From Candidatus Omnitrophota bacterium (GTDB taxonomy: Bacteria; Omnitrophota; Gorgyraeia; B26-G9; JBDRCZ01): a DNA stretch of 64,000 nt. The translations under genes and the position numbers were made by a program. This document shows positions 2,743 to 24,665 of the stretch, in pieces. Location: the NCBI GenBank assembly GCA_043821285.1, contig JBDRCZ010000073.1:3564-67563 (forward strand), given 5' to 3'. Positions within the stretch are counted from its first letter, which is position 1, and every line of letters begins with the position of its first letter. Under the pieces are notes generated by a model. That model worked only from the letters and a program-made list of their open reading frames with translations, had not been told where the DNA came from and made no database searches.

Positions 2743-3138
2743 TTATGATCTATGGCTACTTCTGAGGCTTCTTTCCGTTATCTGTTCTATCTTTCCATTA
2801 GCCAAAATGCGATCCCGTTCTTCCTGTGGTAGCTTTAGGAGGTTCAGAATCTGCGTTACGCGTACCCGCGATATTCCCAGTTTTAAGGCAAGTGTTGTCT
2901 GCGAAACATCTTCCTTTTTCATCAGTCGTTCAAATTCCATAGCTTGAGCTATCGGGTTTACATATGACTCGATATGCTTAAGGTGTCGAAGCCCTTTCTT
3001 TGTAATAATCCGATTTCTTGGTATAAAAGCGGGTTTCGGGCCTCTGAAGATGGTTTTGGTCTTATTGTGGAAGCGGTAGTAATACTGGAGGATCTCGGTA
3101 AGAACGTGCCCTGAATTTGTTCGCTGAGTGTATTGCAC
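2743..3138 (-). CDS. ParB-like HTH protein (lacks the canonical N-terminal ParB/Srx domain)
   Basis: Segment GISRVRVTQILNLLKLPQEERDRI matches the ParB HTH signature (SRSxVxNxLRLLKLPEE). 131 aa only; its start overlaps the start of the downstream methyltransferase on the other strand. Confidence 0.5.
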   Translation of the reverse strand: MQYTQRTNSGHVLTEILQYYYRFHNKTKTIFRGPKPAFIPRNRIITKKGLRHLKHIESYVNPIAQAMEFERLMKKEDVSQTTLALKLGISRVRVTQILNLLKLPQEERDRILANGKIEQITERSLRSSHRS

Positions 3139-5957: not shown

Positions 5958-5986
5958 TTGACAAAAGGACAGTTTTCGGTTAAAAT
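5958..5986 (+). promoter_or_regulatory. sigma70-type promoter upstream of the fdh operon (TTGACA-N17-TAAAAT)
   Basis: TTGACA at 5958-5963, 17-nt spacer, TAAAAT at 5981-5986; about 58 nt upstream of the ATG at 6045. Confidence 0.5.
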
Positions 5987-6044: not shown

Positions 6045-7760
6045 ATGAATAAAAAAGCAATAAGCAGGATCCAGAAAATTATCGCGCAGTATCCGGATAA
6101 AAGGTCAGCTTTAATCCCGGCATTAGATGCGGCCCAGCGCGCGAATGACAATTATCTTTCAAGAGAAGATATCCGGGAAATCGCGAAAATCATGGCGATC
6201 AGTGAAAGTAATGCTTTTGGCGCGGCTACCTTTTATACAATGTTCAATACAAAACATACCGGGAAATATCATCTTCAGGTTGATACAAATGTGCCGGGGT
6301 TTTTAACCGGCGCAGATGAGATCTTTGCCTGCCTGGAAAATAAACTCAAGATAAAAAATGGTGAAACGACAAAAGACGGCCTGTTTACTTTATCAAAGGT
6401 TGAGGACCTGGCATCCTGCGGGACGTGTCCGGTTATTCAGGTGAATGATACTTATTATGAAAATCTGGACGTTGAAAAAACAGATAAATTAATCGAGGCG
6501 CTTAAAAGAGGGGAAGAACCGGAACCGGATACTTCCGCAAATTATGGTACAAAATGTGATATCCTTTTGAAAAACCGCGGGAAAAAAAATAGTACGGACA
6601 TCGCGGTTTATAAACAAGGCGGAGGTTATCGTTCTCTGGAAAAGGCGCTTAGACTAGGGCCTGCGGAAGTCGTGGAAATGGTTAAAGTTGCCATGATAAA
6701 AGGAAGAGGCGGTGCCGGTTTTCCGGCCGGGACAAAATGGGGGTTCCTGCCAAAAAATGACCCGCGGCCGGTTTATCTTATATGTAATGCTGACGAAGGT
6801 GAGCCGGGAACTTTTAAAGACCGCCAGATCATGCAGTATGATCCGCATTTACTGATTGAAGGCATGGCGGTTTCCGCATATGCTATTGGAGCAAAAACCG
6901 CGTTTATATACATCAGAGGTGAATTTAGATGGATTTCAGAGATACTTGAAAAAGCAGTTAAACAGGCAAAAGCCGATAAGAAACTGGGGCATGTTGAGAT
7001 AATCGTTCACCGCGGCGCCGGGGCTTATGTATGCGGAGATGAAACTGCTTTAATGGAGTCGCTTGAAGGAAAACGGGGAAACCCGCGGAATAAGCCGCCG
7101 TTTCCGGCAAACGTTGGATTATACGGTTGTCCGACAATTATAAATAACGTAGAAACGCTTGCCTGTATACCTTTTATTGTTGAAAGAGGTGCCGCGGCTT
7201 TTAAACAAATAGGGACAAGCGGTAATTTTGGACCGAAATTATTCGGCGTAAGCGGACATGTCCATAAACCAGGTGTTTATGAGTTTCCTTTAGGAACTTC
7301 CCTGACAGCTGTTCTTGAGGCGGCCGGAGGAGTTAAGGGCAGGATGAAAGCGGTTATTGTCGGAGGGTTATCTGTTCCGATCCTTAAATCAGAAGAGGCA
7401 AAGGGGCTGAACCTGGATTTTGATGCATGTCTTAAAGCCGGTACGATGCTTGGATCCGGCGGTGTAATCGTTATAAATGATACGACTTCAATCCCGGAGC
7501 TGGCACTTAGAACAATTAGTTTTTATGCCCATGAGTCATGCGGACAGTGCGTGCCGTGCCGGGAAGGAGCGAATCTTGTTAAAGGCAGGATGGAAAAACT
7601 GGTAAAGGGTAAAGGGACGATAACGGATATTGACCTTATTTTAGAGGTGTGTAAAAACGTTCAGGGTTTAACACTTTGTCCCTTAGGCGATGCCTTTGCA
7701 ATCCCGGTTGAAGCAATGGTATTAAAATTTAGAGAAGAATTTGAAGCTTTGGTAAAATAA
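6045..7760 (+). CDS. NAD(H)-binding diaphorase subunit, NuoE-like [2Fe-2S] domain fused to NuoF-like FMN/NAD/[4Fe-4S] domain (FdsB/HoxF-like formate dehydrogenase beta subunit)
   Basis: N-terminal thioredoxin-like ferredoxin region (ASCGTCPVIQVND); GRGGAGFPAGTKW (FMN/NADH site); ESCGQCVPCREG (NuoF 4Fe-4S motif). Confidence 0.85.
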   Translation: MNKKAISRIQKIIAQYPDKRSALIPALDAAQRANDNYLSREDIREIAKIMAISESNAFGAATFYTMFNTKHTGKYHLQVDTNVPGFLTGADEIFACLENKLKIKNGETTKDGLFTLSKVEDLASCGTCPVIQVNDTYYENLDVEKTDKLIEALKRGEEPEPDTSANYGTKCDILLKNRGKKNSTDIAVYKQGGGYRSLEKALRLGPAEVVEMVKVAMIKGRGGAGFPAGTKWGFLPKNDPRPVYLICNADEGEPGTFKDRQIMQYDPHLLIEGMAVSAYAIGAKTAFIYIRGEFRWISEILEKAVKQAKADKKLGHVEIIVHRGAGAYVCGDETALMESLEGKRGNPRNKPPFPANVGLYGCPTIINNVETLACIPFIVERGAAAFKQIGTSGNFGPKLFGVSGHVHKPGVYEFPLGTSLTAVLEAAGGVKGRMKAVIVGGLSVPILKSEEAKGLNLDFDACLKAGTMLGSGGVIVINDTTSIPELALRTISFYAHESCGQCVPCREGANLVKGRMEKLVKGKGTITDIDLILEVCKNVQGLTLCPLGDAFAIPVEAMVLKFREEFEALVK

Positions 7761-7879
7761 GGGAGTAGTGATAGAGCATATAAGTAGTGTTAAAAATGAA
7801 AGGAAATTATAATGAATAAATTAAAAATGGAAAGATTATTCCTAAGATTATTTTGTAATCTAATCAAGGAGGGAGACGT

Positions 7880-10615
7880 ATGTTGATAAAAATTGATGGA
7901 AAGGAAGTTGTCTTTGAAGAGGGAAAGACGATTCTTCAGGCTGCCCGGGAGAATGGGGTTTATATCCCAACGCTTTGTTATCATCAGAAGACCGGGCCGG
8001 GGAATAAGTGCCGGATTTGTGTGGTTAGGGTGGAAGGCATGCGCGGACTGCAGACCGCGTGTTCTGTTCCGGCAGCAGATGGAATGGTTGTTACTACTGA
8101 GACAGAAGAAATTATTGCTGCCAGAAAAATGATTGTTAATCTGCTGCTGGCAAACGGTCATCATGATTGTCTTGCGTGTGAGAAAAACGGCGGGTGTGAA
8201 CTGCAGGATGTTGCTTACAGACTGGGGATTGAAACGCCGGCTTTTATTATAGAGAGCGCGAAGACGGCGAAGGATGAGTCTTCGGAGATGATTGTGCGCG
8301 ATCATTCAAGATGTATACAGTGCGGACGCTGTATCGAAGCATGTAATAAAACGGTAGTGAATGAAGTCCTGGATTTTGGTTATCGCGGGCATGAAAGCCG
8401 GGTTATTTGTGATGATGATCAGCTGATGGGGAAGTCAAGTTGTGTTCAGTGTGGTGAATGTGTTCAGCTTTGTCCGGTCGGCGCAATAATTGACAAGAAA
8501 TCTATTGGCCAGGGACGGCTATGGGAAATGGAGAAGGTAAATACGACGTGCGGATATTGCGGCGTGGGCTGCCAGCTTACGCTTCATGTTGACCGGCAGA
8601 AAAATAAAATCGTAAAGGTGACCGGAAGAGAGTCTGTTCCGAATGAAGGAATGTTATGTGTTAAGGGCCGATATGGATATGAGTTTCCTTCCAGTGAAAA
8701 CAGGCTGAAATACCCGATGATCAAAAAAAACGGTAAGCAGGTGAGAGTAACATGGGAAGAGGCGCTGGATTATACGGCAGAGAAGATAAAATCTATCGTG
8801 GGCCGTGATGGTCCGGATGTCTTTTCTGCTTTTGGGTCAGGCCGGATAACCAATGAAAACAACTATGCGATGATGAAGTTTACGCGGGCGGTGATTAAGA
8901 CAAATAATGTCGACCATTGTGCCCGTACCTGACACGCTCCGACGGTGGCCGGTCTGGCTGCTGCTTTTGGCTCAGGCGCGATGACAAACTCTATTAAAGA
9001 AATCGGGGATGCGGAAGTATTGTTCGTTATTGGTTCTAATACAACCGAGGCACATCCGGTTATTTCTTATTTTATGAAAAGGGCGGTTAAAAAAGGCGGG
9101 ACACTTATTGTTAATGATCCGCGTAAGATTGATTTAACAAGATGGGCGACAATGCATGTTCAGCATAAAGTCGGTACGGACATCGCATATATTAACGGGA
9201 TTATCAACGAGATTTTTGCTCAGGGATGGGAAGATAAGGAATTCCTTAAGAATTGTACCGAAAACCCTGATGAAATCCGTGCCTGGGTTAAAGAGTATAC
9301 GCCGGAGAAGGCATCGGAGATTTGTGGTGTTCCGGTAGAGACCATTAAAAAAGTTGCCCGAATACTGGGGACTGCGAAGACGACCAGTGTATGCTATACC
9401 CTTGGGATAACTGAGCATATCTGCGGAACCGATAATGTCAAATCTATCGCAAATTTACAGATGGTGCTTGGTAACATGGGAAAATATGCCGGCGGGGTAA
9501 ACCCGTTAAGAGGACAGAACAACGTTCAGGGAGCCTGCGACATCGGCGCCCTGCCGAATGTCTATCATAATTATCAGAAGGTTGATGATCCTGCGGTTGC
9601 GCAGAAGTTTGAGAAAGCATGGGGTGTCGAAGGGTTATCAACGAAGGTTGGCTATAAGATGCCGACGATGCTCAGGAATGCCTTAAATGGCGGCACAAAG
9701 ATTCTCTATTGTGTAGGTGACAATACAGTACAGTCTGAACCGAACATGGCACATACGATTAAGGAACTGGAGGCATTGGAGTTTTTTATTGTATGTGACA
9801 TTTTCCCCAATATAACCACTCCTTATGCGGATGTCATTTTCCCTGATACCGCGTGGGGGGAGGAAGACGGTACGTTTACAAATTCAGAAAGAAGAATTCA
9901 AAGAGTGAAAGCAGCTTTAAAAGCACCCGGAGAAGCCTGTTCACATTGGTGGGTTCTTCAGGAGCTTGGTAAAAGACTTGGGGTTGACCTGGGCTTTACG
10001 TCTTCAGAGGCAGTGTGGGAAGATATGAGAAAAACCGCAACAAGTTATGCCGGAATTACATATAAGAGAATAGAAGAAGTCGGACTCCAGTGGCCGTGTC
10101 CAACCGAGGACCATCCGGGAACGCCTTTCCTGCATAAAAGCGGAAAGTTTGCCCGTGGTAAAGGATTGTTCTTTAAAACGAAATATGTTCTTCAGGCCGA
10201 ACCCCCGGATAATGACTATCCATTAATCCTCTCAACCGGAAGACGTTTATGGCACTATCATACAGCTACCCAGACAAGAAACTCAATTGGCCTTTCCGCG
10301 ATATTCCCTGAGGAATTACTGGAGATAAGTCCGGTTGATGCGAATAGGTTAGGTATAAAGACAGGTGATCTTGTGAAGGCCACCAGCCGCCGTGGTGAGA
10401 TTAAGGTAACCGCCTGGGTTACGGATAGATCTGCCCCGGGAGTTTGCTGGTGTTCATTTCATTTTTATGAAGCTTGCGGAAATACTTTAACTATCGATGA
10501 GTTTGATCCTTTGACCGAAACAGCCGAATATAAGGCCTGTGCGATTAAAGTGGAGAAGCTCAAAGATGGAAGTATTGATAGGGCAATTAAAGGCTGGCGA
10601 CAAGCAAGACCTTAA
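7880..10615 (+). CDS. fdhA: formate dehydrogenase alpha subunit, selenocysteine-containing (UGA-Sec at 8930-8932), with N-terminal 2Fe-2S/4Fe-4S ferredoxin domains and Mo/W-bis-PGD domain
   Basis: ORFs 7880..8932 and 8945..10615 are in the same frame, separated only by TGA. Context [28 protein letters not shown] aligns with E. coli FdhF ...CARV-U(140)-HGPSVAGL... N-terminus has NuoG-like CxxC...C clusters. Confidence 0.9.
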
Positions 10616-10640
10616 TCGTCCCGATTAATTATTGTAACTA

Positions 10641-10671
10641 AAAAAGGCCGCAATCTTGCGGCCTTTTTTTA
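10641..10671 (+). terminator. rho-independent terminator after fdhA
   Basis: AAAAAGGCCGCAATCTTGCGGCCTTTTTTT: perfect GC-rich stem, 4-nt loop, T-run. Confidence 0.7.
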
Positions 10672-10699
10672 TCCAAAATATTAAAAATCCGGGTTTGGT

Positions 10700-11425
10700 A
10701 TGAACGTTAATTATTTATACGATCAGTTAAAAACCGCACTGCGGGAGCAGACAGCCGGGCAGCAATTATATCATGAAACCGTATCAATCCGCTGTAGAAC
10801 CTTAACTGCCGATCAAGCGATTGGAAACCCGGAACATCAGGATTATCCGATTATTAAAGGAAAGGAAGTTATGGTTGAGGCCGGGTTTCTTGGGGCAAAA
10901 GGCCAGGCCTTTACTGACGAATTTGAAGCCAGAGACTATACAATTACTCAGTTGATAGATATGGAACTTGATAGCAATAAAAAAAGGGCCAGTTTTATTG
11001 CCGCATTTAATGCGGTTTATCGATATCTTAATCTGTGCGAAAAAACGCTTCATTGTAAGGATAAAGAACCGGTTCAGTGTGCGGAAGAGTTGATAAATAC
11101 CATCCCGGCCGGCGCGAAAGTCCTGTTAATCGGTTATCAGCCCCGTTTTATTGAAAAACTTTCAAGTGCGTTTCAGCTCAGAACTATTGATATGGACGAG
11201 GACAATATTGGCCGGGAGAGTTTTGGGGTTATTGTTGAGCCGCCGTGCCGTACCGCGGAGGCGATAGATTGGGGTAATCTGATACTTGCCACCGGCTCGA
11301 CGATTGTCAATGGAACGATTGTGACTTTTCTAAACAGCGATAAGCCGGTATTATTTTACGGGATAACAATTTCCGGCCCGGCAAGTTTATTATCTTTAAA
11401 AAGATATTGTTTTTGCGGACATTAA
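10700..11425 (+). CDS. DUF364/DUF4213-like Rossmann-fold protein (putative metal-chelation domain)
   Basis: C-terminal Rossmann-like segment (VLLIGYQP...ATGSTIVNGT) reminiscent of the DUF364 family. Family assignment from memory only. Confidence 0.35.
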   Translation: MNVNYLYDQLKTALREQTAGQQLYHETVSIRCRTLTADQAIGNPEHQDYPIIKGKEVMVEAGFLGAKGQAFTDEFEARDYTITQLIDMELDSNKKRASFIAAFNAVYRYLNLCEKTLHCKDKEPVQCAEELINTIPAGAKVLLIGYQPRFIEKLSSAFQLRTIDMDEDNIGRESFGVIVEPPCRTAEAIDWGNLILATGSTIVNGTIVTFLNSDKPVLFYGITISGPASLLSLKRYCFCGH

Positions 11426-11449
11426 CATAAAACCGGATGAGGTGGGAAT

Positions 11450-11635
11450 ATGTTGTCAAAGGATATGATTACGGCAATAGAGGAAATGGTTTTTGAAACG
11501 GATGGACGTCGAAAATTAACCTGTGCCAGTGTGTTTAAGGTTAGTTATGAATTTAAAATACTATTAGCAGAAATTGGTAAGTATTGTAATGAGAACGGAA
11601 TTAAAATAGCGGATTGTCAATTAGGTTGTTTTTAG
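11450..11635 (+). CDS. small hypothetical protein (61 aa, four Cys)
   Basis: ORF between DUF364-like and MobB-like genes; no recognisable family. Confidence 0.3.
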   Translation: MLSKDMITAIEEMVFETDGRRKLTCASVFKVSYEFKILLAEIGKYCNENGIKIADCQLGCF

Positions 11636-11639
11636 GAGA

Positions 11640-12089
11640 ATGTCTCTCATGCGCTCCCCGAAAATCATTGTTGTTGCCGGGGCACATTCTAATATTGGTA
11701 AAACTACGCTTGCCGGTCAATTGTCTGCTCTGCTCGATAAAGCGGTTCGGGTCAAAATCGGACATCACCCGATGAAAGAGCATGGTGATAAAAATTATTA
11801 TTACGCCGGCACAACGTTTTCTGAAATTCTCGCAGATAATCAGGGATGCCGGTTTTTGATCATTGAGAGTAATCAGATACTTAAACAGATTAAACCGGAC
11901 TGTTTGATATTTTTAACCGGACCGGGAAAGACTAAGCCGTCTGCGGAAGCGGCGCTTATCGCGGCGGATATTATCAGAGGGATGTATCTTGATACTGTCC
12001 AGCAGAGACGTATTGCCGCTGTATTGGGGATAAACATGGCCGCGGTCAGAAAAATAATTGAATTATCCGGCGCCTATCTTCAAAAATAA
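11640..12089 (+). CDS. P-loop protein, MobB-like (molybdopterin-guanine dinucleotide biosynthesis adaptor family)
   Basis: Walker A VVAGAHSNIGKTTL; size and context (between fdh and modABC) consistent with MobB. Confidence 0.5.
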   Translation: MSLMRSPKIIVVAGAHSNIGKTTLAGQLSALLDKAVRVKIGHHPMKEHGDKNYYYAGTTFSEILADNQGCRFLIIESNQILKQIKPDCLIFLTGPGKTKPSAEAALIAADIIRGMYLDTVQQRRIAAVLGINMAAVRKIIELSGAYLQK

Positions 12090-12101: not shown

Positions 12102-12905
12102 ATGTTTAAATTTTTCTCTAAGATAGTCTTTTTCGTTGTGATAAGCACTGTGTTCATATTGTTTGTTTCTCTGATTTTTTTCGGCGATAAAACAAAGCCG
12201 GAATTTCCCCGAAAACCAACGCTAATTGTCTATGCCGGGGCCGGGCTGATGAAGCCGATGGAGGAGATTTGTCAACGGTTTGGCAAAGATAATCGGGTAG
12301 AGGTGCGGGTGAACTATGGGGGATCCGGCGAGTTGCTCGGGCAGTTGTCCATGGGGAGAACCGGCGATGTTTTTGTTCCCGGGGCGGATAAATATATTGA
12401 TGATGCGAAAAAAAATAAATGGATTATTGTACCTACTATAACCCGGCTGGTAAAACACGTTCCGGTTATTGCTGTAGGTTATGGCAATCCGCGAAAAATC
12501 AAAGGATTAGATGATCTGATGCGTCCGGAAATAACCCTGGCATTAGGCGACCCGAATGCTTGTGCGATTGGACGTTTAGCGCAGGATATTTTTATAAAGA
12601 ACGGTATTAACAGTCAAATAAAAGCAAATACAAAGGTTGTTACACCTACCGTCAATCAATTATTAATGTATCTGCTGATAAACCAGGTGGATGCGGCAGT
12701 TATCTGGGAAGATATGGTCTCATGGTCAGAAAGCCGGCAAAAACTCTCGATCGTCCGTATAAACCAGGAACAAAATATCATTAAAACAGTTTCTGCGGCG
12801 GTTATATCCGGAAGTTTGCAGCCGCGTGCTGCAGAAAAGTTAATTAAATTTATGGCCTCTGATCAAGGGTATGCGATCTGGGGAAAATGGGGATTTGGCC
12901 GATGA
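12102..12905 (+). CDS. modA: molybdate/tungstate ABC transporter substrate-binding protein (ModA/TupA/WtpA-like)
   Basis: N-terminal signal/TM segment; LIVYAGAGL...NYGGSGEL...GDVFVPGADKY resembles the ModA fold; followed by permease and ATPase genes. Confidence 0.7.
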   Translation: MFKFFSKIVFFVVISTVFILFVSLIFFGDKTKPEFPRKPTLIVYAGAGLMKPMEEICQRFGKDNRVEVRVNYGGSGELLGQLSMGRTGDVFVPGADKYIDDAKKNKWIIVPTITRLVKHVPVIAVGYGNPRKIKGLDDLMRPEITLALGDPNACAIGRLAQDIFIKNGINSQIKANTKVVTPTVNQLLMYLLINQVDAAVIWEDMVSWSESRQKLSIVRINQEQNIIKTVSAAVISGSLQPRAAEKLIKFMASDQGYAIWGKWGFGR

Positions 12906-13744
12906 GGCATACGGACATACTTAAGAACGTGCTCTTAATATTTACGCTGCTGATTGTTCTGATTATAATGGTATCTGTTGCGGCATTGTTTTTTGTACGG
13001 AATTTCTCAGGGGTGTTAGAGAATATATTCAGTCAAGAGATTAGATATTCTCTGCGGTTGTCGATTGTTACCGGATGTGTATCAACGATACTGGTGATTT
13101 GTGCGGCTGTTCCGGTTGCTTATTTATTTTCAAGATACCGGTTCCCGGGACAGCAGATTATAAAGACGGTTTTATATCTGCCAATTGCTTTCCCGGAGAT
13201 TGTGTTAGGACTTTGTCTTTTGCTCTTTTTCGGGCATCCGGCAGTAAGAGGTTTTTTGTCTGTGCTCGGGGTTGATTTTGTTTTTTCAAAGCCTGGGATT
13301 ATTGTCGCGCAGTTTTTTACGGCATTCCCTTATGCGATACGTATAATTAAAACGGTGTTCGATAGTATTGACCCCCAGCAGGAATTAGTCTCAAGAAGTC
13401 TGGGGTATTCTCAGTTAAGGACAATATTCACGATAACCTTGCCGCTGGCAAAAAACGGCATTATCGCGGCTATGGCAATCTCGTTTGCACGTTGTGTCGG
13501 TGCTTTTGGCTCGGTTTTAATTCTGGCCGGCGGAACGCGTATGTATACAGAAACCCTGCCAATCGCCCTGTATTTAAATTTATCTTATGGAAATATGGAT
13601 CTAGCGATAGCCGCAGGCCTGATGCTCGTGGTGATCGCTTTTATCGGTATTTATATTATTGAGGCAATAGAATCGCGATCAGGGGATTCAATGTTTGGAA
13701 TTGTAATAGGCAATAGTGACAAGGTACTGTCAAAAATAAAATGA
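12887..13744 (+). CDS. modB: molybdate/tungstate ABC transporter permease
   Basis: Polytopic membrane protein with an ABC permease EAA-like region, overlapping the modA stop. Confidence 0.7.
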   Translation: MGIWPMRHTDILKNVLLIFTLLIVLIIMVSVAALFFVRNFSGVLENIFSQEIRYSLRLSIVTGCVSTILVICAAVPVAYLFSRYRFPGQQIIKTVLYLPIAFPEIVLGLCLLLFFGHPAVRGFLSVLGVDFVFSKPGIIVAQFFTAFPYAIRIIKTVFDSIDPQQELVSRSLGYSQLRTIFTITLPLAKNGIIAAMAISFARCVGAFGSVLILAGGTRMYTETLPIALYLNLSYGNMDLAIAAGLMLVVIAFIGIYIIEAIESRSGDSMFGIVIGNSDKVLSKIK

Positions 13745-13747
13745 AAG

Positions 13748-13974
13748 AAACCACAGAGGGCACAGAGAGTTATTTTAAAAATAAATAAGTCATTGATACG
13801 GTAACGGTTAAGGTAACGCACTATAACTACGTATAGCGTATTGAGTATTGAGTATTGAGTATTGAGTTTTTATTGTCATCCTTTTAGTTTTTGTGCTCAA
13901 TTCTCAATACTCAATACTCAATACAAAGATGTTACCGTAACCGACAAACCTTTTTCTCTCTGGTGGCTGTGGTT
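13748..13974. repeat. MITE-like element: terminal inverted repeats AAACCACAGAGGGCACAGAGAG / CTCTCTGGTGGCTGTGGTT around a long hairpin of TATTGAG x4 and its complement
   Basis: Inserted exactly in the modB-modC intergenic region. Internal palindrome GGTAACGGTTAAGGTAACG...GTATTGAG x4...CTCAATAC x3...GTTACCGTAACCG. Related copies at 54761-54833 and 62487-62836. Confidence 0.6.
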
Positions 13975-14014
13975 AATTATTTGACAGAACCATATTATAC
14001 GAGGAGAGGAGGAG

Positions 14015-15121
14015 ATGAATAAAGTCTCCGGGCATATCTTAGTAAAAGACCTTTATTTAACACTGGGTAATTTTTGCCTTAAGAAAATTGATCTAGAGGT
14101 AAACCCGGGCGATTACCACATGCTCCTGGGTCCTTCAGGCAGCGGGAAGTCATCTTTAATGAAATGTCTGCTCGGATTTTACCGTATTGATCGCGGCATG
14201 GTGTGGCTGGGTGCCCGGAACATAACGAATGAACGTCCTGAAAAGCGGCGAATGGGATATGTGCCGCAGAATTATGCGCTTTTTTCCCACATGAATGTGG
14301 AAGAGAATATTCGATACGGAATGAAAGCGGCTAATTTGACAAATCACCAAGCCGCGCAGTATCTTAATCGGCTGCTGGGTATCATGGGCATTGAGAATTT
14401 GCGGTTACGGGAAGTAGATTATTTGTCCGGAGGAGAAAAACAAAAAGTCGCGCTTGGCCGGGCCCTGGGCATGAAGCCGGAAACGATTTTGCTTGATGAA
14501 CCCTTTTCTGCGATTGATGAGGACAGTAAACGCCGATTGTGGTTTGAGCTCAAGCAGGTGATTAATGAGGTTGGTGTGACGACCTTACACATAACCCATA
14601 ATCTTGAAGAGGCTGAAACGCTCGGGGACCGATTGACGCTGTTAATCAATGGAGAAATTGTCCAAAGCGGGAAACGGGAGGAATTGTTTGAACATCCGGT
14701 AAATGAACGTGTTGCCCGGTATTTGAATTACCGGAATATTTTTTATGGGGTAATAAGGGATTACGATGATCACCAAATGTTTGTTTCTGAACATTTCTCT
14801 GTTTCATTAAACCGGAAGTTCCCAAGTAACATACCGGTGACGTTATGTATTCGCCAGCAGGATATAAAGATCGTCAGAGACAATGTTCCGCTTAAGGAAG
14901 AACTATCCGGCACGGTCTTCTCAGGAGAGATTGTAGAATTATTTCAACTTTCAGAATATAGTTTGATGTGGTTTAAGATTGACACCAGCCCCAATAAATA
15001 CGACTTTGAAGTAAAATTTCCGAGCTTTATTGATAAACGGCTGGCGCTTTTTACCGGCAAGCGGATTAAGGTTGCCTTTTGGGAATCAAGGGTTATTATT
15101 TTTGAAAACGAAAGGAGATAG
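14015..15121 (+). CDS. modC: molybdate/tungstate ABC transporter ATP-binding protein with C-terminal TOBE-like domain
   Basis: Walker A GPSGSGKSS, signature LSGGEKQKV, Walker B LLDEP; about 130 aa C-terminal extension typical of ModC/TOBE. Confidence 0.8.
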   Translation: MNKVSGHILVKDLYLTLGNFCLKKIDLEVNPGDYHMLLGPSGSGKSSLMKCLLGFYRIDRGMVWLGARNITNERPEKRRMGYVPQNYALFSHMNVEENIRYGMKAANLTNHQAAQYLNRLLGIMGIENLRLREVDYLSGGEKQKVALGRALGMKPETILLDEPFSAIDEDSKRRLWFELKQVINEVGVTTLHITHNLEEAETLGDRLTLLINGEIVQSGKREELFEHPVNERVARYLNYRNIFYGVIRDYDDHQMFVSEHFSVSLNRKFPSNIPVTLCIRQQDIKIVRDNVPLKEELSGTVFSGEIVELFQLSEYSLMWFKIDTSPNKYDFEVKFPSFIDKRLALFTGKRIKVAFWESRVIIFENERR

Positions 15122-16403: not shown

Positions 16404-17213
16404 ATGAAAAAATATTTAGGTATAGATGCGGGATCGCGTTTTCTAAAATACGTTATTTTAGATACTGAAACAATTATAGACAGCGGAGTTGTCTCATCCG
16501 GTAATATAGATAAGACTTTATTTTCTAATCTTGTTGAGAATGTGGAAGGAATAGGTCTGACAGGATACGGAAGGTCGATGTTCCTGGAATTTTTACAGCA
16601 TTTTTCTGCAAAGAAAATCACCGAAATAAAGGCAGCAGCCTGCGGATTAAAATATCTTGGACAAAAAGCAGCAACTGTTATAGATATAGGAGGGCAAGAT
16701 ACAAAAATAATATATCTGGATGATGAATATTCCATAAAAGATTTTACAATGAACGATAAATGCGCGGCAGGGACAGGAAAATTTATTGAAATGGTCTTAA
16801 AAACCCTTGATTTGAACTTGGAACAGGCAAGGGATATTGACTGGGGCGGGGGAACAGACGTAAAGATAAACTCAACATGCGCAGTTTTTGCTGAGACAGA
16901 AATAATACAGCATTTATATGCCGGGGTTAAGCGGTTAGATATTTTTACGGCTGTTTTAAAAAGTATTGCTTCCAGAGTGATCATTCCTAACAGGTATATG
17001 ATTTCGGAACCTGTTGTGCTTTCCGGCGGTACAGCGTATTTCAAATCTTTACAAGATTGGCTTAAGGTAATATTAAAGACGGATATAGTAGTGCCGGAGA
17101 AATTCTGGTTTGTCAATGCAATAGGTGCAGCTAATTATGCATTGGAGTTTACTCAACAAGTCAAATATAGAGAGGAGGGAACTGGTGTTCCGGCTGGTCT
17201 TCAAAACCAGTAG
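16404..17213 (+). CDS. BadF/BadG/BcrA/BcrD-type ATPase, activator of 2-hydroxyacyl-CoA dehydratase (HgdC-like)
   Basis: GIDAGSRFLK...DIGGQDTKII...MNDKCAAGTGKF...STCAVFAETE closely matches the HgdC/CoA-substrate-specific enzyme activase family. The 3' 45 nt overlap tRNA-Sec. Confidence 0.85.
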   Translation: MKKYLGIDAGSRFLKYVILDTETIIDSGVVSSGNIDKTLFSNLVENVEGIGLTGYGRSMFLEFLQHFSAKKITEIKAAACGLKYLGQKAATVIDIGGQDTKIIYLDDEYSIKDFTMNDKCAAGTGKFIEMVLKTLDLNLEQARDIDWGGGTDVKINSTCAVFAETEIIQHLYAGVKRLDIFTAVLKSIASRVIIPNRYMISEPVVLSGGTAYFKSLQDWLKVILKTDIVVPEKFWFVNAIGAANYALEFTQQVKYREEGTGVPAGLQNQ

Positions 17214-17263
17214 CAGGCGGATAATACCGTCTGTGGCAGGTTCGATTCCTGCTCTCTCTGCCA
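17169..17263 (+). tRNA. selC: tRNA-Sec (anticodon UCA)
   Basis: 95 nt. 8-bp acceptor (AGAGAGGA / CTCTCTCT) + G discriminator + CCA. 6-bp D stem with 4-nt loop. 6-bp anticodon stem with loop CTTCAAA (UCA at 17201-17203). Long variable arm (CAGGCGG-ATAATA-CCGTCTG). T arm GCAGG-TTCGATT-CCTGC. Lies directly upstream of selA-selB. Confidence 0.85.
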
Positions 17264-17318: not shown

Positions 17319-18731
17319 TTGGCGGGAAAAATGAATAAAAAAAACAATCAGTTACGCCGGCTTCCCGGGGTTGACGCGGTGCTGAATGAACCGGGCATAA
17401 AAAAGCTGATCACCGAATATGGCCGGGATATGGCGGTTTATTCTGCGCGTAAGGTAATCAGCGCTATGCGGGAAGAAATTAAATCCGGCGGGCTTGATTT
17501 TCAAAAAGATATATTATTCAACCGGATTAATGATACTGTTTACAAAATTGCGCGTGATCGGTTTAAACCGGTTATTAATGCAACCGGCATTCTGATTCAT
17601 ACTAATCTTGGCCGTGCCCCCCTGGGTGAGTACGCGGCCGCGGAGCTGGAAAAGACAATAGCCGGTTATACGAATCTGGAGTTTGATCTTGCCACGGGCC
17701 GCCGCGGACGGCGAAACGATTTGATTGCTCCGCTTATTAATTTTTTAACCGGGGCAGAAGACTCGCTTGTGGTAAATAACAATGCTGCGGCGCTGCTAAT
17801 TATTCTGCATACTTTTGCCCGCGGTAAAGAGGTTATTGTTTCGCGGGGCGAACTTGTGGAAATCGGTGATTCCTTCCGTATTCCCGATATGTTACGCGCG
17901 GCCGGGGCAAAGATGGTTGAGGTTGGCACGACGAATAGAACGCGCCTGTGTGATTATGAAAAGGCATTGACACCCAGGACCGCACTCATTTTAAAAGTAC
18001 ATAAGTCTAATTACGCGATTACGGGGTTTACCGAAGAAGTTTCGGTTAAAGATCTTTCCGGGTTTTCCCATAAACAGGCAATCCCTTTTGTATACGATAT
18101 CGGGTCGGGCCTGTTACGCAAACCAAAAGGCTTTACCCTTGAGAATGAGCCTGAGGTAAAAGGTGCAATTGGTCACGGCGCGGACATGGTGACGTTTAGC
18201 GGGGATAAACTGATTGGCGGGCCGCAGGCAGGAATCATTACCGGCAGAAAAGATTTAATCCGCCGCATTGCGCGCGCGCCGATGATGCGGGCACTGCGGG
18301 TAGGAAAACTCACCCTGGCCGCGCTTATTGTTACCTGCAGGCAGTATCTGAATGACAAAGAGCGCAAAAGTAAGACACCGTTATTTACCCTGCTTGAGCG
18401 CAGTAAAAGGCAGAGAAAAGAAATGGCCGTAAACCTTATGGAGGAGTTGAGGAAACAGAACATTGCCGCAACCATGGTAAAAAACAAAGGGTGCTGCGGC
18501 GGCGGTACTCTGCCGGAACTGTACATTGACAGTTTTGCCGTTTGTCTTAACTTCCCGTACCAAAACAATAAAGAACGTGTGCATGCTGCGGAAAAAACAT
18601 TTCGCGAACTTTTACGCATAGATAAACCGATTATCGCTATTTTACGTAAAGGTGAAATTCTTTTCGATGTGCTTGCCCTTTTGCCGCAGGATATACCGTA
18701 TATTGCCGAGCAAGCTGCCAAAACAAGATAA
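17319..18731 (+). CDS. selA: L-seryl-tRNA(Sec) selenium transferase
   Basis: KPVINATGILIHTNLGRAPL...NNNAAALLIILHTFARGKEVIVSRGELVEIGDSFRIPD...FSGDKLIGGPQAGII aligns along its length with E. coli SelA. Confidence 0.93.
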   Translation: MAGKMNKKNNQLRRLPGVDAVLNEPGIKKLITEYGRDMAVYSARKVISAMREEIKSGGLDFQKDILFNRINDTVYKIARDRFKPVINATGILIHTNLGRAPLGEYAAAELEKTIAGYTNLEFDLATGRRGRRNDLIAPLINFLTGAEDSLVVNNNAAALLIILHTFARGKEVIVSRGELVEIGDSFRIPDMLRAAGAKMVEVGTTNRTRLCDYEKALTPRTALILKVHKSNYAITGFTEEVSVKDLSGFSHKQAIPFVYDIGSGLLRKPKGFTLENEPEVKGAIGHGADMVTFSGDKLIGGPQAGIITGRKDLIRRIARAPMMRALRVGKLTLAALIVTCRQYLNDKERKSKTPLFTLLERSKRQRKEMAVNLMEELRKQNIAATMVKNKGCCGGGTLPELYIDSFAVCLNFPYQNNKERVHAAEKTFRELLRIDKPIIAILRKGEILFDVLALLPQDIPYIAEQAAKTR

Positions 18732-18740: not shown

Positions 18741-20681
18741 ATGAAACATTTGATTATGGGTACTGCCGGGCATGTTGACCATGGCAAAACCGCGCTGATA
18801 AAAATGCTTACCGGCATTGATTGTGATACCCATCCGGAAGAAAAGCGCCGCGGGATAACCATGAATTTAGGGTTTGCCTATTATGACCTTCCGGACTCCT
18901 CCCGGCTGGGGATTGTTGATGTTCCCGGTCACAGAAATTTTGTGCATACCATGGCCGCCGGCGCAAGCGGTATTGATTTTTTCCTATTAGTCATTGCCGC
19001 AGACAGCGGGATTATGCCTCAGACGCGGGAGCACGTGAAAATAATAGAGATGTTCGGGATTAAAAAGGGGATTATCGTGCTGAACAAGATTGACCTTATT
19101 GACGATGAATTGCGGGAGTTAAATCAGGAAGAGATCCGTGATTATTTTAAAGATACGTTGTTTGCCGGCCTTCCGGTAACCGGGGTCTCGGCAAAGACCG
19201 GAGCGGGGAAGGAAGATTTGCAGCAGGCTATTTTTAATCTCGCGCAAAGTGTCGATGAAAAAGTGATTGAAAAAATCTTCCGGATGTACATTGACCGTAT
19301 TTTTATTGTTGAAGGCTTCGGTACGGTAGTAACCGGCACGGTATTAGGCGGCCGGCTCTCGCCGGGGGATAGGGTTTATCTTTTACCATCGGAGAAAGAG
19401 CTTCGCATCCGGCGGATAGAGCATCACGGCCGGGAAGTTCAAGAGATCCGCGCCGGCGACAGAGCAGCCATAAACCTTGTGGGCTTAGACCGCAGCGATT
19501 TTAGCCGCGGCATGCTTATTTCCGACAGGATACTGGAACCGTCGACGATGATTGACGTGTACTGTTCTGTTTTTGATCAGGTTACCGGCCTTAATGTATG
19601 GACATCGGCTTTATTTCACTGCGGGACGAATGAAATACAATGCCGGGTGCATTTACTTGATTGCGACCGGCTAATGCCCAAAGAACAGGCGGTTGCGCAG
19701 ATCGTACTTTCAAAGCCGGCAGTTATCTTAAACAATGACCGTTTTATATTAAGGAATACCTCCTCTGACGCGACAATCGGCGGGGGAACGGTTATTGACG
19801 CGCATCCGCTGCATCACCGGCGCCGGACGCAAAGGATGGTCGAAGAAGTTAAGAAAAGGATTGACAGCAATCTGCCGGAGCTGATTTTCTCGGAAGTACG
19901 CAAGCGCTACCGGGTTGTTTCAGATAAAGAAATTGCAGACGTATTAAACCTCCCCGCGGACCAGGTACTGGAGGTAGTTCAGAAAGAGACAGCGGATGAT
20001 ATAGTTGTGTGCATTGATAATAATGAAGCGGTACTGCTGCTGCGAAACGAATATAAGAGAATGAAAGGCCGGGTGCTTAAACGCCTTGAGGTTTTCCATA
20101 ACAATAATCCCTATGATGAGCGAGGAATGACGTTTGAAGCGTTCATAAGTGTTTTTGGATTTCAGGCAGAGGCGGCCGGAGAAATGTTTATGAAATGTCT
20201 GTTAGCGTCATTAGAAAAAAACAACAGCATAAAAAAGGCCGGTAATACCTGGGCGCTTAACAGCCATACGGTTACAATTGAGGCAGGCATGGAGCAGGAC
20301 ATCGCGTGCATAGAAAATTATCTAAAAAACTCAGGGCTTAGAACGCCGCTTATCTCGGAAATAATTCCCTATGCCAAGGCAAAACGCGCTATTCATGAAA
20401 AGAAACTTCGTCAGATCCTGCATTATTTAGCAAGCCGGGCTAAAATATATGAGATTGAAGGCAATTTTATTCATGCCTCAGTCGTGGATGCGTGCCGGGC
20501 AAAACTGTTAAACAGCCTGAAGGATAAATCCGGAGGCATAACCGTTGCGCAATTCAGGGATATTATTAAAGGAAACCGTAAAATGTGTCTTTTGCTGCTT
20601 GGCCAATATGATGCTGAAGAAATTATCGTACGACAGGGGGATGTGCGGGTTTTGACCGAAAAGGGCGCAGGGTACGTGTAG
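18741..20681 (+). CDS. selB: selenocysteine-specific translation elongation factor
   Basis: GTPase motifs [17 protein letters not shown] followed by about 400 aa of winged-helix mRNA-binding extension; adjacent to selA. Confidence 0.93.
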
Positions 20682-20884: not shown

Positions 20885-21973
20885 ATGAAAATCAGCAGAA
20901 ATATTTTTGCCAAACAATCGGGCGTTATCGCAGCCGGCGCAGTTATCGGGATTCTGGCGGTATTATTACAGAAATTCGGTAATCCGGGAAATATGGGAAT
21001 TTGTGTGGCGTGTTTTACCCGCGATATTGCCGGGTCATTAGGACTGCACCGCACGGCTGCGGTACAGTATCTGCGTCCGGAAATTTTTGGGATTATATTA
21101 GGTGCTTTTATTACCGCACTGATATTTAGCGAGTTTAAGCCGCGGGCAGGAACTTCTTCCATGATAAAGTTTTTTTTAGGCGCGTTTGCCATGATCGGCG
21201 CGCTGGTTTTTCTTGGCTGCCCGTGGCGGCTTTCGCTTCGCCTTGCAGCCGGTGACGGCCAGGCGCTGTTTGGGTTAGCGGGGTTGGTTAGCGGTATTTG
21301 GGCGGGTACGCGTTTTTTTGCTTTTGGATATAACCCCGGTACCTGGAGCAAAGCAAAGCCTTCTACCGGACTTTTGCTGCCTTTTTTTATCACAGGAATT
21401 TTGATTTTAAGCTTTGTATATCCGCCATTAAAAGAACAGGCCAAAAACGGTCTATTTTTCTACAGCATTGCCGGACCGGGAAGTATGCATGCGCCAATAT
21501 TAGTATCGCTTATTTTCGGAATGATTATCGGTTTTTTTCTTCAGCGCAGCCGGTTTTGCACGATCGGAGGGATACGTGATTTTCTCCTGTTTAAACAAAC
21601 CCATTTGTTAACCGGAGTAATCAGCCTGATAATATTTGCTTTTATCATGAATATTGTATTTGGATATTTTAAACCCGGGTTTATAAATCAACCCATAGCA
21701 CATTCAGAGGTAATATGGAACTTTTTAGGGATGATGCTTGCGGGCTTATCTTTTACGCTCGCGGGCGGCTGCCCGGGAAGACAGCTTGTTTTAGCCGGTG
21801 AAGGCGACGGTGATGCAGGGGTATTCTTTTTAGGTATGCTTAGCGGGGCAGGATACGCGCATAATTTTATGCTCGCGGCCACACCGCAAGGAGTCAGTCT
21901 AAACGGAAAGATTGCAGTGATTACCGGGTTGATAATCGTGCCGTTAATTGCCTGGGGTATGCGGGAAGAGTGA
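20885..21973 (+). CDS. yedE: YedE/YeeE family membrane protein (putative selenium/thiosulfate transporter)
   Basis: 362 aa polytopic membrane protein with the YedE family features (GNMGICVAC... and repeated halves); followed by a TusA-like yedF. Confidence 0.8.
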   Translation: MKISRNIFAKQSGVIAAGAVIGILAVLLQKFGNPGNMGICVACFTRDIAGSLGLHRTAAVQYLRPEIFGIILGAFITALIFSEFKPRAGTSSMIKFFLGAFAMIGALVFLGCPWRLSLRLAAGDGQALFGLAGLVSGIWAGTRFFAFGYNPGTWSKAKPSTGLLLPFFITGILILSFVYPPLKEQAKNGLFFYSIAGPGSMHAPILVSLIFGMIIGFFLQRSRFCTIGGIRDFLLFKQTHLLTGVISLIIFAFIMNIVFGYFKPGFINQPIAHSEVIWNFLGMMLAGLSFTLAGGCPGRQLVLAGEGDGDAGVFFLGMLSGAGYAHNFMLAATPQGVSLNGKIAVITGLIIVPLIAWGMREE

Positions 21974-22241: not shown

Positions 22242-23408
22242 ATGGTTTTTAACACAAAGCATAGTATTATTTATGCGGATAACGCGGCAACAACATGGCC
22301 AAAACCGCAGTGCGTCATTGGAGCCATGCGGAATTTCTTTTTTAATGTTGGGGCAAGTCCCGGCCGGTCCGGGCACCGTATGTCGCTTAATTCCGCACAA
22401 ATACTTTTTGCCGCGCGGGAGGAGATTGCTGATTTTTTCGGGCTTAATAATTCCCAGAACGTTATTTTTACTCTAAACGCGACGTATGCCCTGAATATTG
22501 CGATTAAAGGGATACTCAAAAAAGGGGCACATGTGATTGTCTCGTCTTTTGAGCATAATTCAGTTATCCGGCCGCTGACTTATCTTAAAGAGCGGGAAAA
22601 AATATCGATTACCCGCATTCCGCAAGATTCCAGACGGCAGTTTGCGCTAAAAGCGTTTGAACAATCTTTCCGGGCAAACACACAGCTTGTTATAATAAAT
22701 CATGCCTCAAACGTGACCGGCGCAATTATGCCGGTAAAAAAGATTGGACAAATATGCAAAAAGAAGAAGGTCCCGTTATTAGTCGATGCCGCGCAAACCG
22801 CCGGGGCAATCCCGATTAACGTAAAAGATGAGGCAATTGATCTGCTCGCGTTTACCGGGCATAAAAGCCTTATGGGTCCGCAGGGGACCGGCGGGCTCTG
22901 CATAGCCGGCTGCCAGCCCCAGACACTTTTTCACGGAGGCACGGGAAGCTATTCAGAGCAAGAATCCCATCCGGATTTTATGCCGGATAGATTAGAGGCC
23001 GGTACGCCGAATATCATCGGGATTGCCGGATTACGCGCGGGCATACAGTACCTCAAAGATACGGGTATTGATACAATCGTTAAAAAAGAGCGGCTTCTTG
23101 CGGAAAAATTAGTTAATGGTCTGCGTGCCTGCAAGAATGTTATGGTTTGTGGAACGGATACTTTGGAAGAGCGGCTGCCGATATTATCTTTTAATATAAA
23201 AGGTAAGCGAGCCGATGAAGTGGGTGTCCGGTTAGACAAAGAGTTTAATATCATGACGCGTGTGGGGCTTCATTGCGCGCCTGCGGCGCATAAAGCAATA
23301 GGCACGTTTCCTCACGGTACAGTAAGAATAAGCCTGAGTTTTATGAATACTGAGGACAGCGCGGACCGGATCATCTCAGCGGTACGGACAATTGCAGAAA
23401 GAGCATGA
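22242..23408 (+). CDS. cysteine desulfurase / selenocysteine lyase-like aminotransferase class V
   Basis: NifS/CsdA-like; SFEHNSV, TGHKSLMGPQGTGGL (PLP-Lys region), catalytic Cys region; located in the selenium cluster. Confidence 0.8.
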   Translation: MVFNTKHSIIYADNAATTWPKPQCVIGAMRNFFFNVGASPGRSGHRMSLNSAQILFAAREEIADFFGLNNSQNVIFTLNATYALNIAIKGILKKGAHVIVSSFEHNSVIRPLTYLKEREKISITRIPQDSRRQFALKAFEQSFRANTQLVIINHASNVTGAIMPVKKIGQICKKKKVPLLVDAAQTAGAIPINVKDEAIDLLAFTGHKSLMGPQGTGGLCIAGCQPQTLFHGGTGSYSEQESHPDFMPDRLEAGTPNIIGIAGLRAGIQYLKDTGIDTIVKKERLLAEKLVNGLRACKNVMVCGTDTLEERLPILSFNIKGKRADEVGVRLDKEFNIMTRVGLHCAPAAHKAIGTFPHGTVRISLSFMNTEDSADRIISAVRTIAERA

Positions 23409-23608
23409 TAATTCTTGTATTTGAGTCAACGTATTTTCTCATGCGTGCCCAGAAAAGTTTAATGCAGCGCAATATCAGGCATGAGGTTATTCCTACACCC
23501 CGGGATATCTCTTCAGATTGCGGCATGGCAATCAGAGTAGATGCTGACGTAAAAGAGAGCGCAATAGAGACATTACGTAAGGCAAACGTTAAGGTTATGA
23601 TGAAATAA
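23405..23608 (+). CDS. DUF3343-like small protein (putative Se/S carrier associated with selD/cysteine desulfurase)
   Basis: 67 aa; sits between the cysteine desulfurase and selD, a position and size typical of DUF3343. Family recalled, not searched. Confidence 0.45.
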   Translation: MIILVFESTYFLMRAQKSLMQRNIRHEVIPTPRDISSDCGMAIRVDADVKESAIETLRKANVKVMMK

Positions 23609-23621: not shown

Positions 23622-24665
23622 ATGGACGTTGATTTGCTTGCGACAATTGAGAGCGGAGGATGCTCCGCGAAGATATCCGCGCAGGCCCTGCGCGAGGCCC
23701 TGCGTGGTCTGCCTAAGATTACTGATGAACGGCTGCTCGTTAACATTGACACACACGATGATGCCGGCGTATATAAACTCACCGAAGATATTGCACTTAT
23801 TCATACCACTGATTTTTTCCCGCCGGTTTGTTCAGAGCCGTATGAATTCGGACAGATCGCCGCGGCTAATTCCTTAAGTGATGTATATGCTATGGGCGGA
23901 AAAGCAATCTCCGCGCTTAACCTGGTAATGTTCCCGTCAAAAAAGATGTCACTTGAAGTTTTAAAGGAAATACTGCGCGGCGGCAGTGATATGCTCCAGC
24001 AGGCGGATGCAGTAATCGCCGGCGGGCATACGATTGATGATGACCCTTTAAAATACGGTCTTGCGGTTACCGGCATCGTACATCCTGAAAGAATAATAAC
24101 AAATACTGCGGCACAGCATGGCGATATACTTGTACTTACAAAACCTCTGGGGGTTGGGATTATTATTAGCGCTAGGAAACTGAACATAGTTAGTGACGAA
24201 CACTATGATGTTGCATTAAATACCATGAAACAGCTCAATGCAAAAGGCGCGCAAATCATGCAGCAGTTCAATGTAAAAGGAGCAACCGATATTACCGGCT
24301 TCGGCCTGCTCGGGCATGCCTTAAAGATGGCTTATGCGAGCAGAGTGACCATGGAAATTCATGCGGATAAACTTCCTTTTTTACCGGGCGCTTACGAACT
24401 TGCCGAGCGCGGATGTTTACCGTGCGGGGTGTTTAAAAACCAGCAGTTTACAGAACAGGACACAGAGATTTCAGAAGGTGTTGATTTTAATAAAATCATG
24501 ATTGCATCTGACGCACAGACTTCCGGCGGCCTGCTCATTTCAATTGCTGCGGCTAAAGCAGAGGATTTAGTATTAGCCTGTCATAAGGCCGGATATCACG
24601 AAGCCCGAATAATTGGCAAAGTAACAAACAAAAAACAAAAATTTCTCCTATTCCGGCAACAATAG
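23622..24665 (+). CDS. selD: selenophosphate synthetase (selenide, water dikinase), Cys-type
   Basis: N-terminal SGGCSAKIS (matches E. coli GAGCGCKIS, Cys not Sec); DDAGVY, TTDFF, AGGHTIDD, PLGVGII align with E. coli SelD. Confidence 0.93.
   Translation: MDVDLLATIESGGCSAKISAQALREALRGLPKITDERLLVNIDTHDDAGVYKLTEDIALIHTTDFFPPVCSEPYEFGQIAAANSLSDVYAMGGKAISALNLVMFPSKKMSLEVLKEILRGGSDMLQQADAVIAGGHTIDDDPLKYGLAVTGIVHPERIITNTAAQHGDILVLTKPLGVGIIISARKLNIVSDEHYDVALNTMKQLNAKGAQIMQQFNVKGATDITGFGLLGHALKMAYASRVTMEIHADKLPFLPGAYELAERGCLPCGVFKNQQFTEQDTEISEGVDFNKIMIASDAQTSGGLLISIAAAKAEDLVLACHKAGYHEARIIGKVTNKKQKFLLFRQQ

Follow-up and report, generated by a model that had tools for sequence, protein, structure and literature searches.

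A 64,000-nucleotide stretch from a metagenome-assembled genome (MAG) of a Candidatus Omnitrophota bacterium (assembly GCA_043821285.1, contig JBDRCZ010000073.1, positions 3,564 to 67,563 of the forward strand; hereafter the window, numbered from its first nucleotide) carries a formate dehydrogenase (FDH) gene, fdhA, with an in-frame TGA at its catalytic codon. The reading that we put forward, and consider very likely to be right as a whole, is that fdhA is one selenocysteine (Sec) FDH gene, that its UGA is decoded with the help of a selenocysteine insertion sequence (SECIS), and that its product works as a non-bifurcating, NAD(P)-linked enzyme together with a NuoE-NuoF fusion protein encoded just upstream. 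FdhA is the most widespread bacterial selenoprotein, with 822 organisms on record (Peng et al., 2016; PMC5029168). The identification as a Sec-FDH is thus correct and ordinary, and leaves the understanding of Sec-dependent FDHs unchanged; its interest lies in the annotation of such genes and in what it predicts for this phylum. The elements of the gene itself are as follows.

7880..10615, + strand: fdhA, one gene of 911 codons that encodes the catalytic alpha subunit (frame translation, Pfam, TIGR01591)
8930..8932, + strand: UGA codon 351, predicted to be read as selenocysteine, the active-site Mo/W ligand (sequence, alignments)
8943..8963, + strand: candidate SECIS hairpin, an 8-bp stem (8943-8950 with 8956-8963) closed by the loop GGUCU at 8951-8955 (fold, covariation)
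7867..7872, + strand: Shine-Dalgarno-like AGGAGG, 7 nt upstream of the ATG at 7880 (sequence)
10648..10673, + strand: terminator-like hairpin CCGCAA-TC-TTGCGG with a T-run behind it, 33 nt past the fdhA stop (by eye)

One gene across the in-frame TGA

Translation of 7880-10615 in a single frame gives 912 codons with one internal stop, the tga at 8930-8932, and the two pieces into which the list of open reading frames (ORFs) divides the region (7880-8932 and 8945-10615) share that frame. An earlier reading made from the sequence alone had taken these two ORFs to be one gene interrupted by a recoded TGA, and the translation reproduces exactly the flanking residues quoted in it. The unity of the gene is apparent from the Fdh-alpha profile TIGR01591 of NCBIfam, an equivalog model with a curated cut-off of 666.25 bits: the upstream piece covers profile positions 1-127 and the downstream piece 130-672, scoring 149.8 and 588.2 bits, respectively, both under the cut-off. 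The joined protein, with Cys placed at the stop, is the only form to pass it, at 765.6 bits, in one stretch from residue 222 to 891 that spans profile positions 1-672. There are no other defects in the 911 codons. TGA terminates 14 of the 46 family-supported ORFs of the window and lies in frame in only one, fdhA; UGA is therefore an ordinary stop in this genome segment and the in-frame case a specific event. Two further same-frame TGA junctions, at 34591 and 41262, were rejected as additional recoding sites, being ordinary neighboring genes of different families.

The homologues identify the interrupted codon. Across 107 homologous sites, including that of the window, the codon at this position is TGA in 84 and TGC or TGT in 23, with no gaps, so that the position is always occupied by a potential Sec or by Cys, as the sequence-only reading had anticipated. 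The homologue DNA comprised 25 loci from GTDB species genomes, 2 obtained via exact protein look-up and 80 from metagenomes. Protein databases present a different picture at first sight: full-length relatives reach at most 76% identity, and those carrying the motif all have Cys (79/79). A looser motif pattern finds Cys in 109 of 112 full-length database homologues; the three exceptions are truncated entries. The closest protein matches (78-88% identity) are fragments of 544-557 amino acids that begin just past the site, because gene callers split the TGA-type genes. Eight such fragment clusters (P0041, P0047, P0057, P0058, P0060, P0080, P0088 and P0091) begin with MAGL or MTNS. Relatives of FdhA with 70-80% identity come from MAGs labelled as many different phyla.

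The window also holds the genes needed to make and deliver Sec: selC, selA, selB and selD, all above curated thresholds, lie 6.5-14 kb downstream of fdhA, among other selenium-related genes.

17167..17263, + strand: selC, tRNA-Sec with anticodon UCA (ARAGORN; Rfam RF01852 at 62.8 bits, gathering score 47)
17319..18731, + strand: selA (TIGR00474 at 514.2 bits, cut-off 267.9)
18741..20681, + strand: selB (TIGR00475 at 353 bits, cut-off 242.25; product 100% identical to MFH1777478.1)
20885..21973, + strand: YedE-type selenium transporter (family scans)
22242..23408, + strand: cysteine desulfurase or Sec-lyase-like protein (family scans)
23405..23608, + strand: Se/S-carrier protein (family scans)
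23622..24665, + strand: selD of the Cys type, GGCSAK (family scans, sequence)

The tRNA-Sec gene is overlapped by 47 nt, on the same strand, by an acyl-CoA dehydratase-activase-like coding sequence (16404-17213), in which the family match stops at residue 243-246 of 269; the tail that overlaps selC may be incidental.

A bacterial SECIS had been expected within about 40 nt downstream of the UGA, although the sequence-only reading had not folded one with confidence; the hairpin at 8943-8963 fills this place. It is part of the minimum-energy fold of 8930-8995. Its stem begins 10 nt past the UGA in the 8-bp form, or 12 nt past it if only the conserved 6-bp core is counted (8945-8950 with 8956-8961), and its loop reads G22 G23 U24 C25 U26 from the U of the UGA, with G23 and U24 conserved as in E. 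coli. An alignment of the window with 22 TGA-type genomes shows the core (columns 19-24 with 30-35) fully paired in all 23 sequences; in it the pair 21-33 appears as CG, GU, UA and AU through synonymous third bases of Val and Ala codons. A larger set of 75 distinct Sec-type sequences, from which the window was excluded, shows the same: the core is paired in 96.2% of cells, sliding the 3' arm as a control lowers this to 17-61%, and the pair 21-33 is CG in 34, GC in 27, GU in 4, UA in 4 and AU in 3.

Beyond covariation, the hairpin goes with the TGA and not merely with the peptide encoded. The full stem with a GGUCU loop is present in 64 of 76 Sec-type genes as opposed to 2 of 20 Cys-type genes (Fisher p = 9e-10), and GGT serves as the Gly codon of the loop in 68/76 versus 6/20, respectively; two downstream control Gly codons show no Sec-versus-Cys bias. 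When the 64-kb window was searched with a covariance model trained on the 75 other sequences, this hairpin was the sole significant hit, at 76.5 bits. Among the TGA-type fdhA loci from metagenomes, three (L047, L052 and L063) lack the standard register and read GTAGCGGGGCTAC, where a 5-bp stem with a 3-nt GGG loop is possible; this stem may be a variant SECIS.

A direct comparison is possible with the SECIS of E. coli fdhF. Its 42-mer matches 5419 of 5426 E. coli genomes, nearly all exactly, under fdhF annotated as Sec-containing; a blastn search of the window's region against the E. coli genomes gave no match. The E. coli element also has GGUCU at nt 22-26 from the U of the UGA, coding for the same V-A-G-L peptide. 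It differs in having a bulged U (U17) and a 4-nt loop, whereas the clade of the window has a continuous stem and a 5-nt loop. The bulged U is a trait of E. coli-type SECIS elements and is not universal. The Rfam model SECIS_3 (RF01989) matches 8927-8985 over model positions 1-59 (E = 2e-9 locally), agreeing with the window in the UGACAC start, the upper stem and the GUC loop. In the lower stem at least four pairs are non-standard, and the U that is bulged in the model is paired here.

A probable NAD(P)-linked enzyme and the question of bifurcation

The FdhA protein starts with a NuoG-like region bearing [2Fe-2S] and [4Fe-4S] sites, which is followed by the molybdopterin/tungstopterin domain. 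Its Pfam domains are, in order, Fer2_4 (3-75), NADH-G_4Fe-4S_3 (82-119), a Fer4 dicluster (144-203), Molybdop_Fe4S4 (217-269), Molybdopterin (275-699) and Molydop_binding (782-888), so that the N-terminal NuoG-like Fe-S domains named in the sequence-only reading are all present. BLASTP aligns residues 217-896 with residues 1-690 of E. coli FdhH at 40% identity (the reference, FdhF, being taken from a RefSeq genome, where it is annotated as selenocysteine-containing). This alignment puts the TGA on Sec140, as had been proposed from the flanking residues: U351, H352 and R544 fall on Sec140, His141 and Arg333, and C223, C226, C230 and C259 on the [4Fe-4S] ligands C8, C11, C15 and C42. Set against the solved chains 9wxb_B, 6tg9_A and 7e5z_A, the TGA corresponds to the catalytic Cys (CARVCHSPT). 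It corresponds to the catalytic Cys of 7qv7_S as well, and to the Cys of the FdhF of the Thermoanaerobacter kivui hydrogen-dependent CO2 reductase (HDCR).

The best full-length relatives of solved structure, over residues 3-892, are 9wxb_B, 6tg9_A (Rhodobacter capsulatus FdsA) and 7e5z_A (the alpha subunit of MeFDH1). The translated sequence has no twin-arginine motif at its N-terminus and family scans of the cluster found no membrane or cytochrome subunit; together with best relatives that are cytoplasmic NAD-dependent FDHs, this bears out the earlier view of a soluble rather than a respiratory enzyme. On this evidence FdhA is very probably the catalytic subunit of a cytoplasmic Mo- or W-bis-pyranopterin FDH of the FdsA/MeFDH1-alpha type.

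The NuoE/NuoF fusion said to precede fdhA is there as described.

6045..7760, + strand: fdhB-like diaphorase subunit, a NuoE-NuoF fusion of 571 aa (Pfam, PDB matches, motifs)
5958..5986, + strand: promoter-like site TTGACA-17-TAAAAT (11/12), located 59 nt upstream of the start of the fdhB-like gene (by consensus alone)

This partner combines a NuoE-like thioredoxin fold (PF01257, residues 9-154), a Complex1_51K FMN domain (213-376), an SLBB domain and an NADH_4Fe-4S domain of the N3 type (486-568). The motifs GRGGAGFP and GAGAYVCGDE delineate an FMN/NAD(P)H site, and CGQCVPC...C545 supplies a [4Fe-4S] motif (C499/C502/C505/C545). Among solved chains, just one covers the partner over its whole length (8-564): the beta subunit of the tungsten FDH MeFDH1, 7e5z_B, itself a NuoE-NuoF fusion. 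When compared with NDUFV2, the [2Fe-2S] ligand positions of the NuoE-like domain are D80, G85, D121 and C125, three of the four Cys having been replaced, with an extra C128 in SCGTC (window 6270-6440, codons 76-132). This degenerate pattern is kept in 13 close partner loci; distant partners retain C-x4-C...C-x3-C. In the MeFDH1 beta subunit the [2Fe-2S] cluster lies off the electron relay (PMC10869683), and hence its loss or re-ligation in the window partner would be tolerable.

The sequence-only reading had left two options for this pair, an NAD(P)-linked or an electron-confurcating enzyme. According to Losey et al. (2020; PMC7311640), the marks of bifurcating NuoF-like subunits include additional Fe-S domains, a Phe in place of Tyr at the FMN site, and GGPSG, and we scored these three features. 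The window partner has no extra Fer4 or other Fe-S domain, has Tyr in GAGAYVCGDE, and shows VGGLSVP where GGPSG would be expected, a non-bifurcating pattern shared by 13 loci with partners of 57-79% identity. More distant fdhA loci adjoin weaker-matching partners with GAGAFVCG and GGPSGGC, the bifurcating pattern, and the criteria therefore discriminate within this data set.

The partner's pattern thus favors the NAD(P)-linked option and not the confurcating one. An enzyme like HylABC-FdhF2 or HytA-E/FdhA, which would couple formate oxidation to the reduction of both NAD(P)+ and ferredoxin, is an unlikely competitor, and would leave Sec decoding unchanged. In its favor, the NuoF-like part scores about as well with the bifurcating HydB/NfnB chains (about 310-330 bits) as with FDH beta subunits (260-291 bits), and many related fdhA loci adjoin partners of the bifurcating type. 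Against this, the window partner, in common with its 13 close relatives, lacks the three sequence hallmarks just described, is without a separate HydC-like subunit, and has a degenerate [2Fe-2S] site in its NuoE-like domain. On these sequence features we favor, as the probable answer, a simple formate:NAD(P)+ oxidoreductase. The absence of bifurcation, as well as the choice between NAD and NADP, that between W and Mo, and the direction of catalysis, are points that we infer.

Accepting a simple formate:NAD(P)+ oxidoreductase, the following sequence of events can be proposed. The UGA at codon 351 would be recoded to Sec, with the hairpin that lies 11-13 nt downstream, at 8943-8963, acting as a bacterial SECIS that recruits SelB-GTP-Sec-tRNA(Sec) to the ribosome paused at the UGA; selC, selA, selB and selD would supply the Sec tRNA plus the enzymes of synthesis and delivery. 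In the folded enzyme the selenol would ligate the metal beside His352 and Arg544. Formate-derived electrons would then travel along the alpha subunit's five Fe-S sites, reach the [4Fe-4S] cluster and the FMN in the NuoE-NuoF fusion and go on to NAD(P)+, or alternatively flow in reverse for CO2 reduction, with neither ferredoxin nor electron bifurcation being involved. This would give an Omnitrophota MAG a predicted formate-NAD(P)H route, a point of relevance to the acetogenic and fermentative metabolism proposed for the phylum; the acetogenesis models for Omnitrophota include variants without FDH (PMC10066038).

Alternatives to selenocysteine decoding

The remaining alternatives dispute the decoding itself. 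The first is that the TGA is a true stop, due to a pseudogene, a nonsense mutation or an assembly error, and that no full-length enzyme is made. Here the public record deserves attention: ABH952_07920 (MFH1777466) is the ORF at 5164-5622, MFH1777469 is the DUF364 protein encoded downstream of fdhA, and ABH952_07945 and ABH952_07950 are the next two genes. Between ABH952_07920 and the DUF364 gene there are three locus tags and two protein accessions, and hence one feature without a protein. That feature may or may not be fdhA, recorded as a pseudogene; neither the two FdhA halves nor the NuoE-NuoF protein has an exact counterpart in the protein collection. A true stop is nevertheless very improbable: 84 independent assemblies, spread over many phyla, have TGA exactly at the catalytic position, together with a conserved covarying hairpin that Cys-type genes are without, and the gene of the window is otherwise intact over 911 codons, with the complete Sec machinery nearby.

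Even less probable is the production of two polypeptides, a 350-aa Fe-S protein that terminates at the TGA plus a molybdopterin protein whose translation starts anew at GTG 8945 or ATG 8978. Gene callers do yield exactly such pieces in relatives, namely the eight fragment clusters listed above. However, such a split would fall inside the Molybdopterin domain, at profile position 128 of 672, and eliminate the metal ligand, the Cys-type homologues are all single chains, and inspection of the sequence upstream of the two internal starts found no purine-rich ribosome-binding site comparable to that of the ATG at 7880. Finally, that the hairpin is an intrinsic terminator or attenuator following a real stop can be dismissed as the least probable of all, despite its ranking first in a simple terminator scan (9 pairs then CTTTTGG), because its T-run consists simply of TTT GGC, coding for Phe-Gly, and most relatives have TTC GG there, and because the hairpin itself lies within a conserved coding region, at a UGA distance and with a loop as in the E. 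coli fdhF SECIS.

Several observations weigh against the overall reading of a SECIS-decoded, non-bifurcating Sec-FDH. Read-through at codon 351 is deduced from the sequence evidence above. The folding of the UGA region, proposed earlier as a check, gave a divided outcome: the hairpin is present in the minimum-energy fold, but its single-sequence stability is not above that of shuffled sequences (z = +0.23, and z = -0.12 for a 42-nt version). The proven E. coli fdhF SECIS gives only z = -0.91 by the same test, which makes the test uninformative; it is the comparison across homologues that decides the matter. In two relatives the minimum-energy fold is without the conserved hairpin. The U at nt 17, bulged in E. 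coli, pairs with G or A in the window clade. The SECIS_3 match scores 43.6 bits where 63 is the gathering score, and it does not preserve the model's lower stem; Rfam scans at the gathering threshold yield the tRNA-Sec alone for the window, and no SECIS for any of 14 Sec-type relatives. We take the sub-threshold score to reflect a narrow curated model and not a missing element. Because the covariance model gives Cys-type genes 28-70 bits as well, its score mostly reflects coding conservation and carries little weight. On the side of the enzyme, FdhD and MobA genes are absent from the 64-kb window, and a partner with a degenerate [2Fe-2S] site is not a textbook diaphorase.

For annotation, fdhA should be entered as one 911-codon selenoprotein gene in place of two fragments or of a pseudogene. 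The eight fragment clusters, which are among the closest database hits, and the 83 TGA-type loci retrieved for comparison need correcting in the same way.

The gene cluster and comparison with known systems

Downstream of fdhA, and before the selenium genes, lie three small genes and a transporter.

10700..11425, + strand: DUF364 protein (conserved beside fdhA in the closest relative, locus L026, 72% identity)
11450..11635, + strand: 61-aa Cys-rich ORF ending in CQLGCF (ORF downstream of fdhA)
11640..12089, + strand: 149-aa P-loop protein, GAHSNIGKT (also after fdhA in L026, 64% identity)
12102..15121, + strand: molybdate/tungstate-type ABC transporter with ModA-like binding protein, permease and ATPase (family models)

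In L026 the DUF364 and P-loop genes lie within 10295-11678, after fdhA; elsewhere in that locus (14025-14150, - strand) there is a thiamine pyrophosphate (TPP) riboswitch at 70.4 bits upstream of thiS/thiG/thiH. PDB and Pfam searches gave no function or relative for the DUF364 protein or the small P-loop ORF; the DUF364, 61-aa and P-loop genes could be cofactor-insertion helpers. The binding protein of the transporter passes the ModA model and the best match of its ATPase is WtpC, which means that the transporter does not tell Mo from W. Between the transporter and selC, at 15124-17213, are genes for a double-cubane-cluster anaerobic reductase (NF040772 at 429 bits, cut-off 350) and its ATP-dependent activase. 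No Moco-type riboswitch or other RNA was found upstream of the operon.

The fdh, Mo/W transport and selenium genes together form a cluster, from about 5.1/6 to 24.7 kb, with a G+C content of 41-48% versus 33-41% around it. It is flanked upstream by DNA methylase fragments and ParB-HTH/HTH_32 genes (1784-5622), and a tyrosine integrase is encoded about 3.5 kb downstream of it (28115-29446). Neither att-like repeats of the selC 3' end nor long direct repeats at the borders of the cluster turned up when searched for. The G+C content, the flanks and the spread of FdhA relatives across phyla suggest horizontal spread. According to Peng et al., fdhA, where it is the sole selenoprotein gene, frequently lies in one cluster with sel genes, and the trait is passed on horizontally (PMC5029168). 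A 2026 preprint on 176 complete Omnitrophota genomes found selA and selD in 1/176; the present MAG is predicted from its genes to be able to decode Sec. We tentatively raise a broader scenario, though we hold it to be somewhat doubtful: the enzyme might represent an uncharacterised, multi-phylum clade of non-bifurcating, NAD(P)-linked Sec-FDHs that lost the canonical four-Cys [2Fe-2S] site of the NuoE-like domain, and the roughly 19-kb fdh/Mo-W/Sec cluster might have been acquired horizontally by an Omnitrophota lineage that kept the Sec trait for one enzyme.

Several other features of the window were noticed in passing. The three ORFs at 3133-4296, 4293-5102 and 5128-5622 each carry pieces of an N6/N4 DNA methyltransferase and look like one or two disrupted genes. 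Past the integrase, 29746-34000 holds small genes, including those for DUF2703, HEPN (pEK499_p136) and DUF5677 proteins, and may be a region of defense or mobile-element cargo. The gene at 524-1708 is an ACR3 family arsenite efflux transporter according to NCBI (MFH1777461.1) and SBF according to Pfam; it adjoins a DsbD_2-like fragment at 102-503. A 1433-aa subtilase-family S8 protease is encoded at 55734-60035 on the - strand, and very long Omnitrophota proteins are discussed in a 2026 preprint. The glutaminyl-tRNA synthetase (GlnRS) encoded at 60709-62400 is 100% identical to MFH1777524.1.

In terms of known systems, the predicted enzyme shares its active-site arrangement with E. coli FdhH (FdhF; PDB 1aa6). 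That protein, unlike FdhA here, is without the NuoG-like N-terminal extension, and passes its electrons to hydrogenase-3 in the formate hydrogenlyase complex and not to a flavoprotein. FdsABGD of R. capsulatus (6tg9/6tga; also 9wxb) and MeFDH1 of Methylobacterium extorquens (7e5z/7vw6), which match at 647 and 611 bits over the full alpha subunit, have a cofactor chain alike in outline to that predicted for the window enzyme. They have an active-site Cys where the window enzyme would have Sec, a change in the metal ligand and not in the type of mechanism; the identity of FDH beta subunits to the window partner is modest, and no FdsD or FdsC genes were found in the comparison with Fds-type enzymes. 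The complexes of the bifurcating (Bfu) type, HylABC-FdhF2, HytA-E/FdhA and HydABC, also combine a NuoF-like flavoprotein with a NuoG-like Fe-S domain, and some contain Sec FDH subunits, but the sequence hallmarks of their beta subunits are absent from the window partner. The closest functional analogue we take to be the NADP-dependent W-FDH of Moorella thermoacetica, in which a Sec-containing alpha subunit is paired with a NuoE/F-like beta subunit; the Sec-FDHs of syntrophs and acetogens group with that enzyme as analogues.

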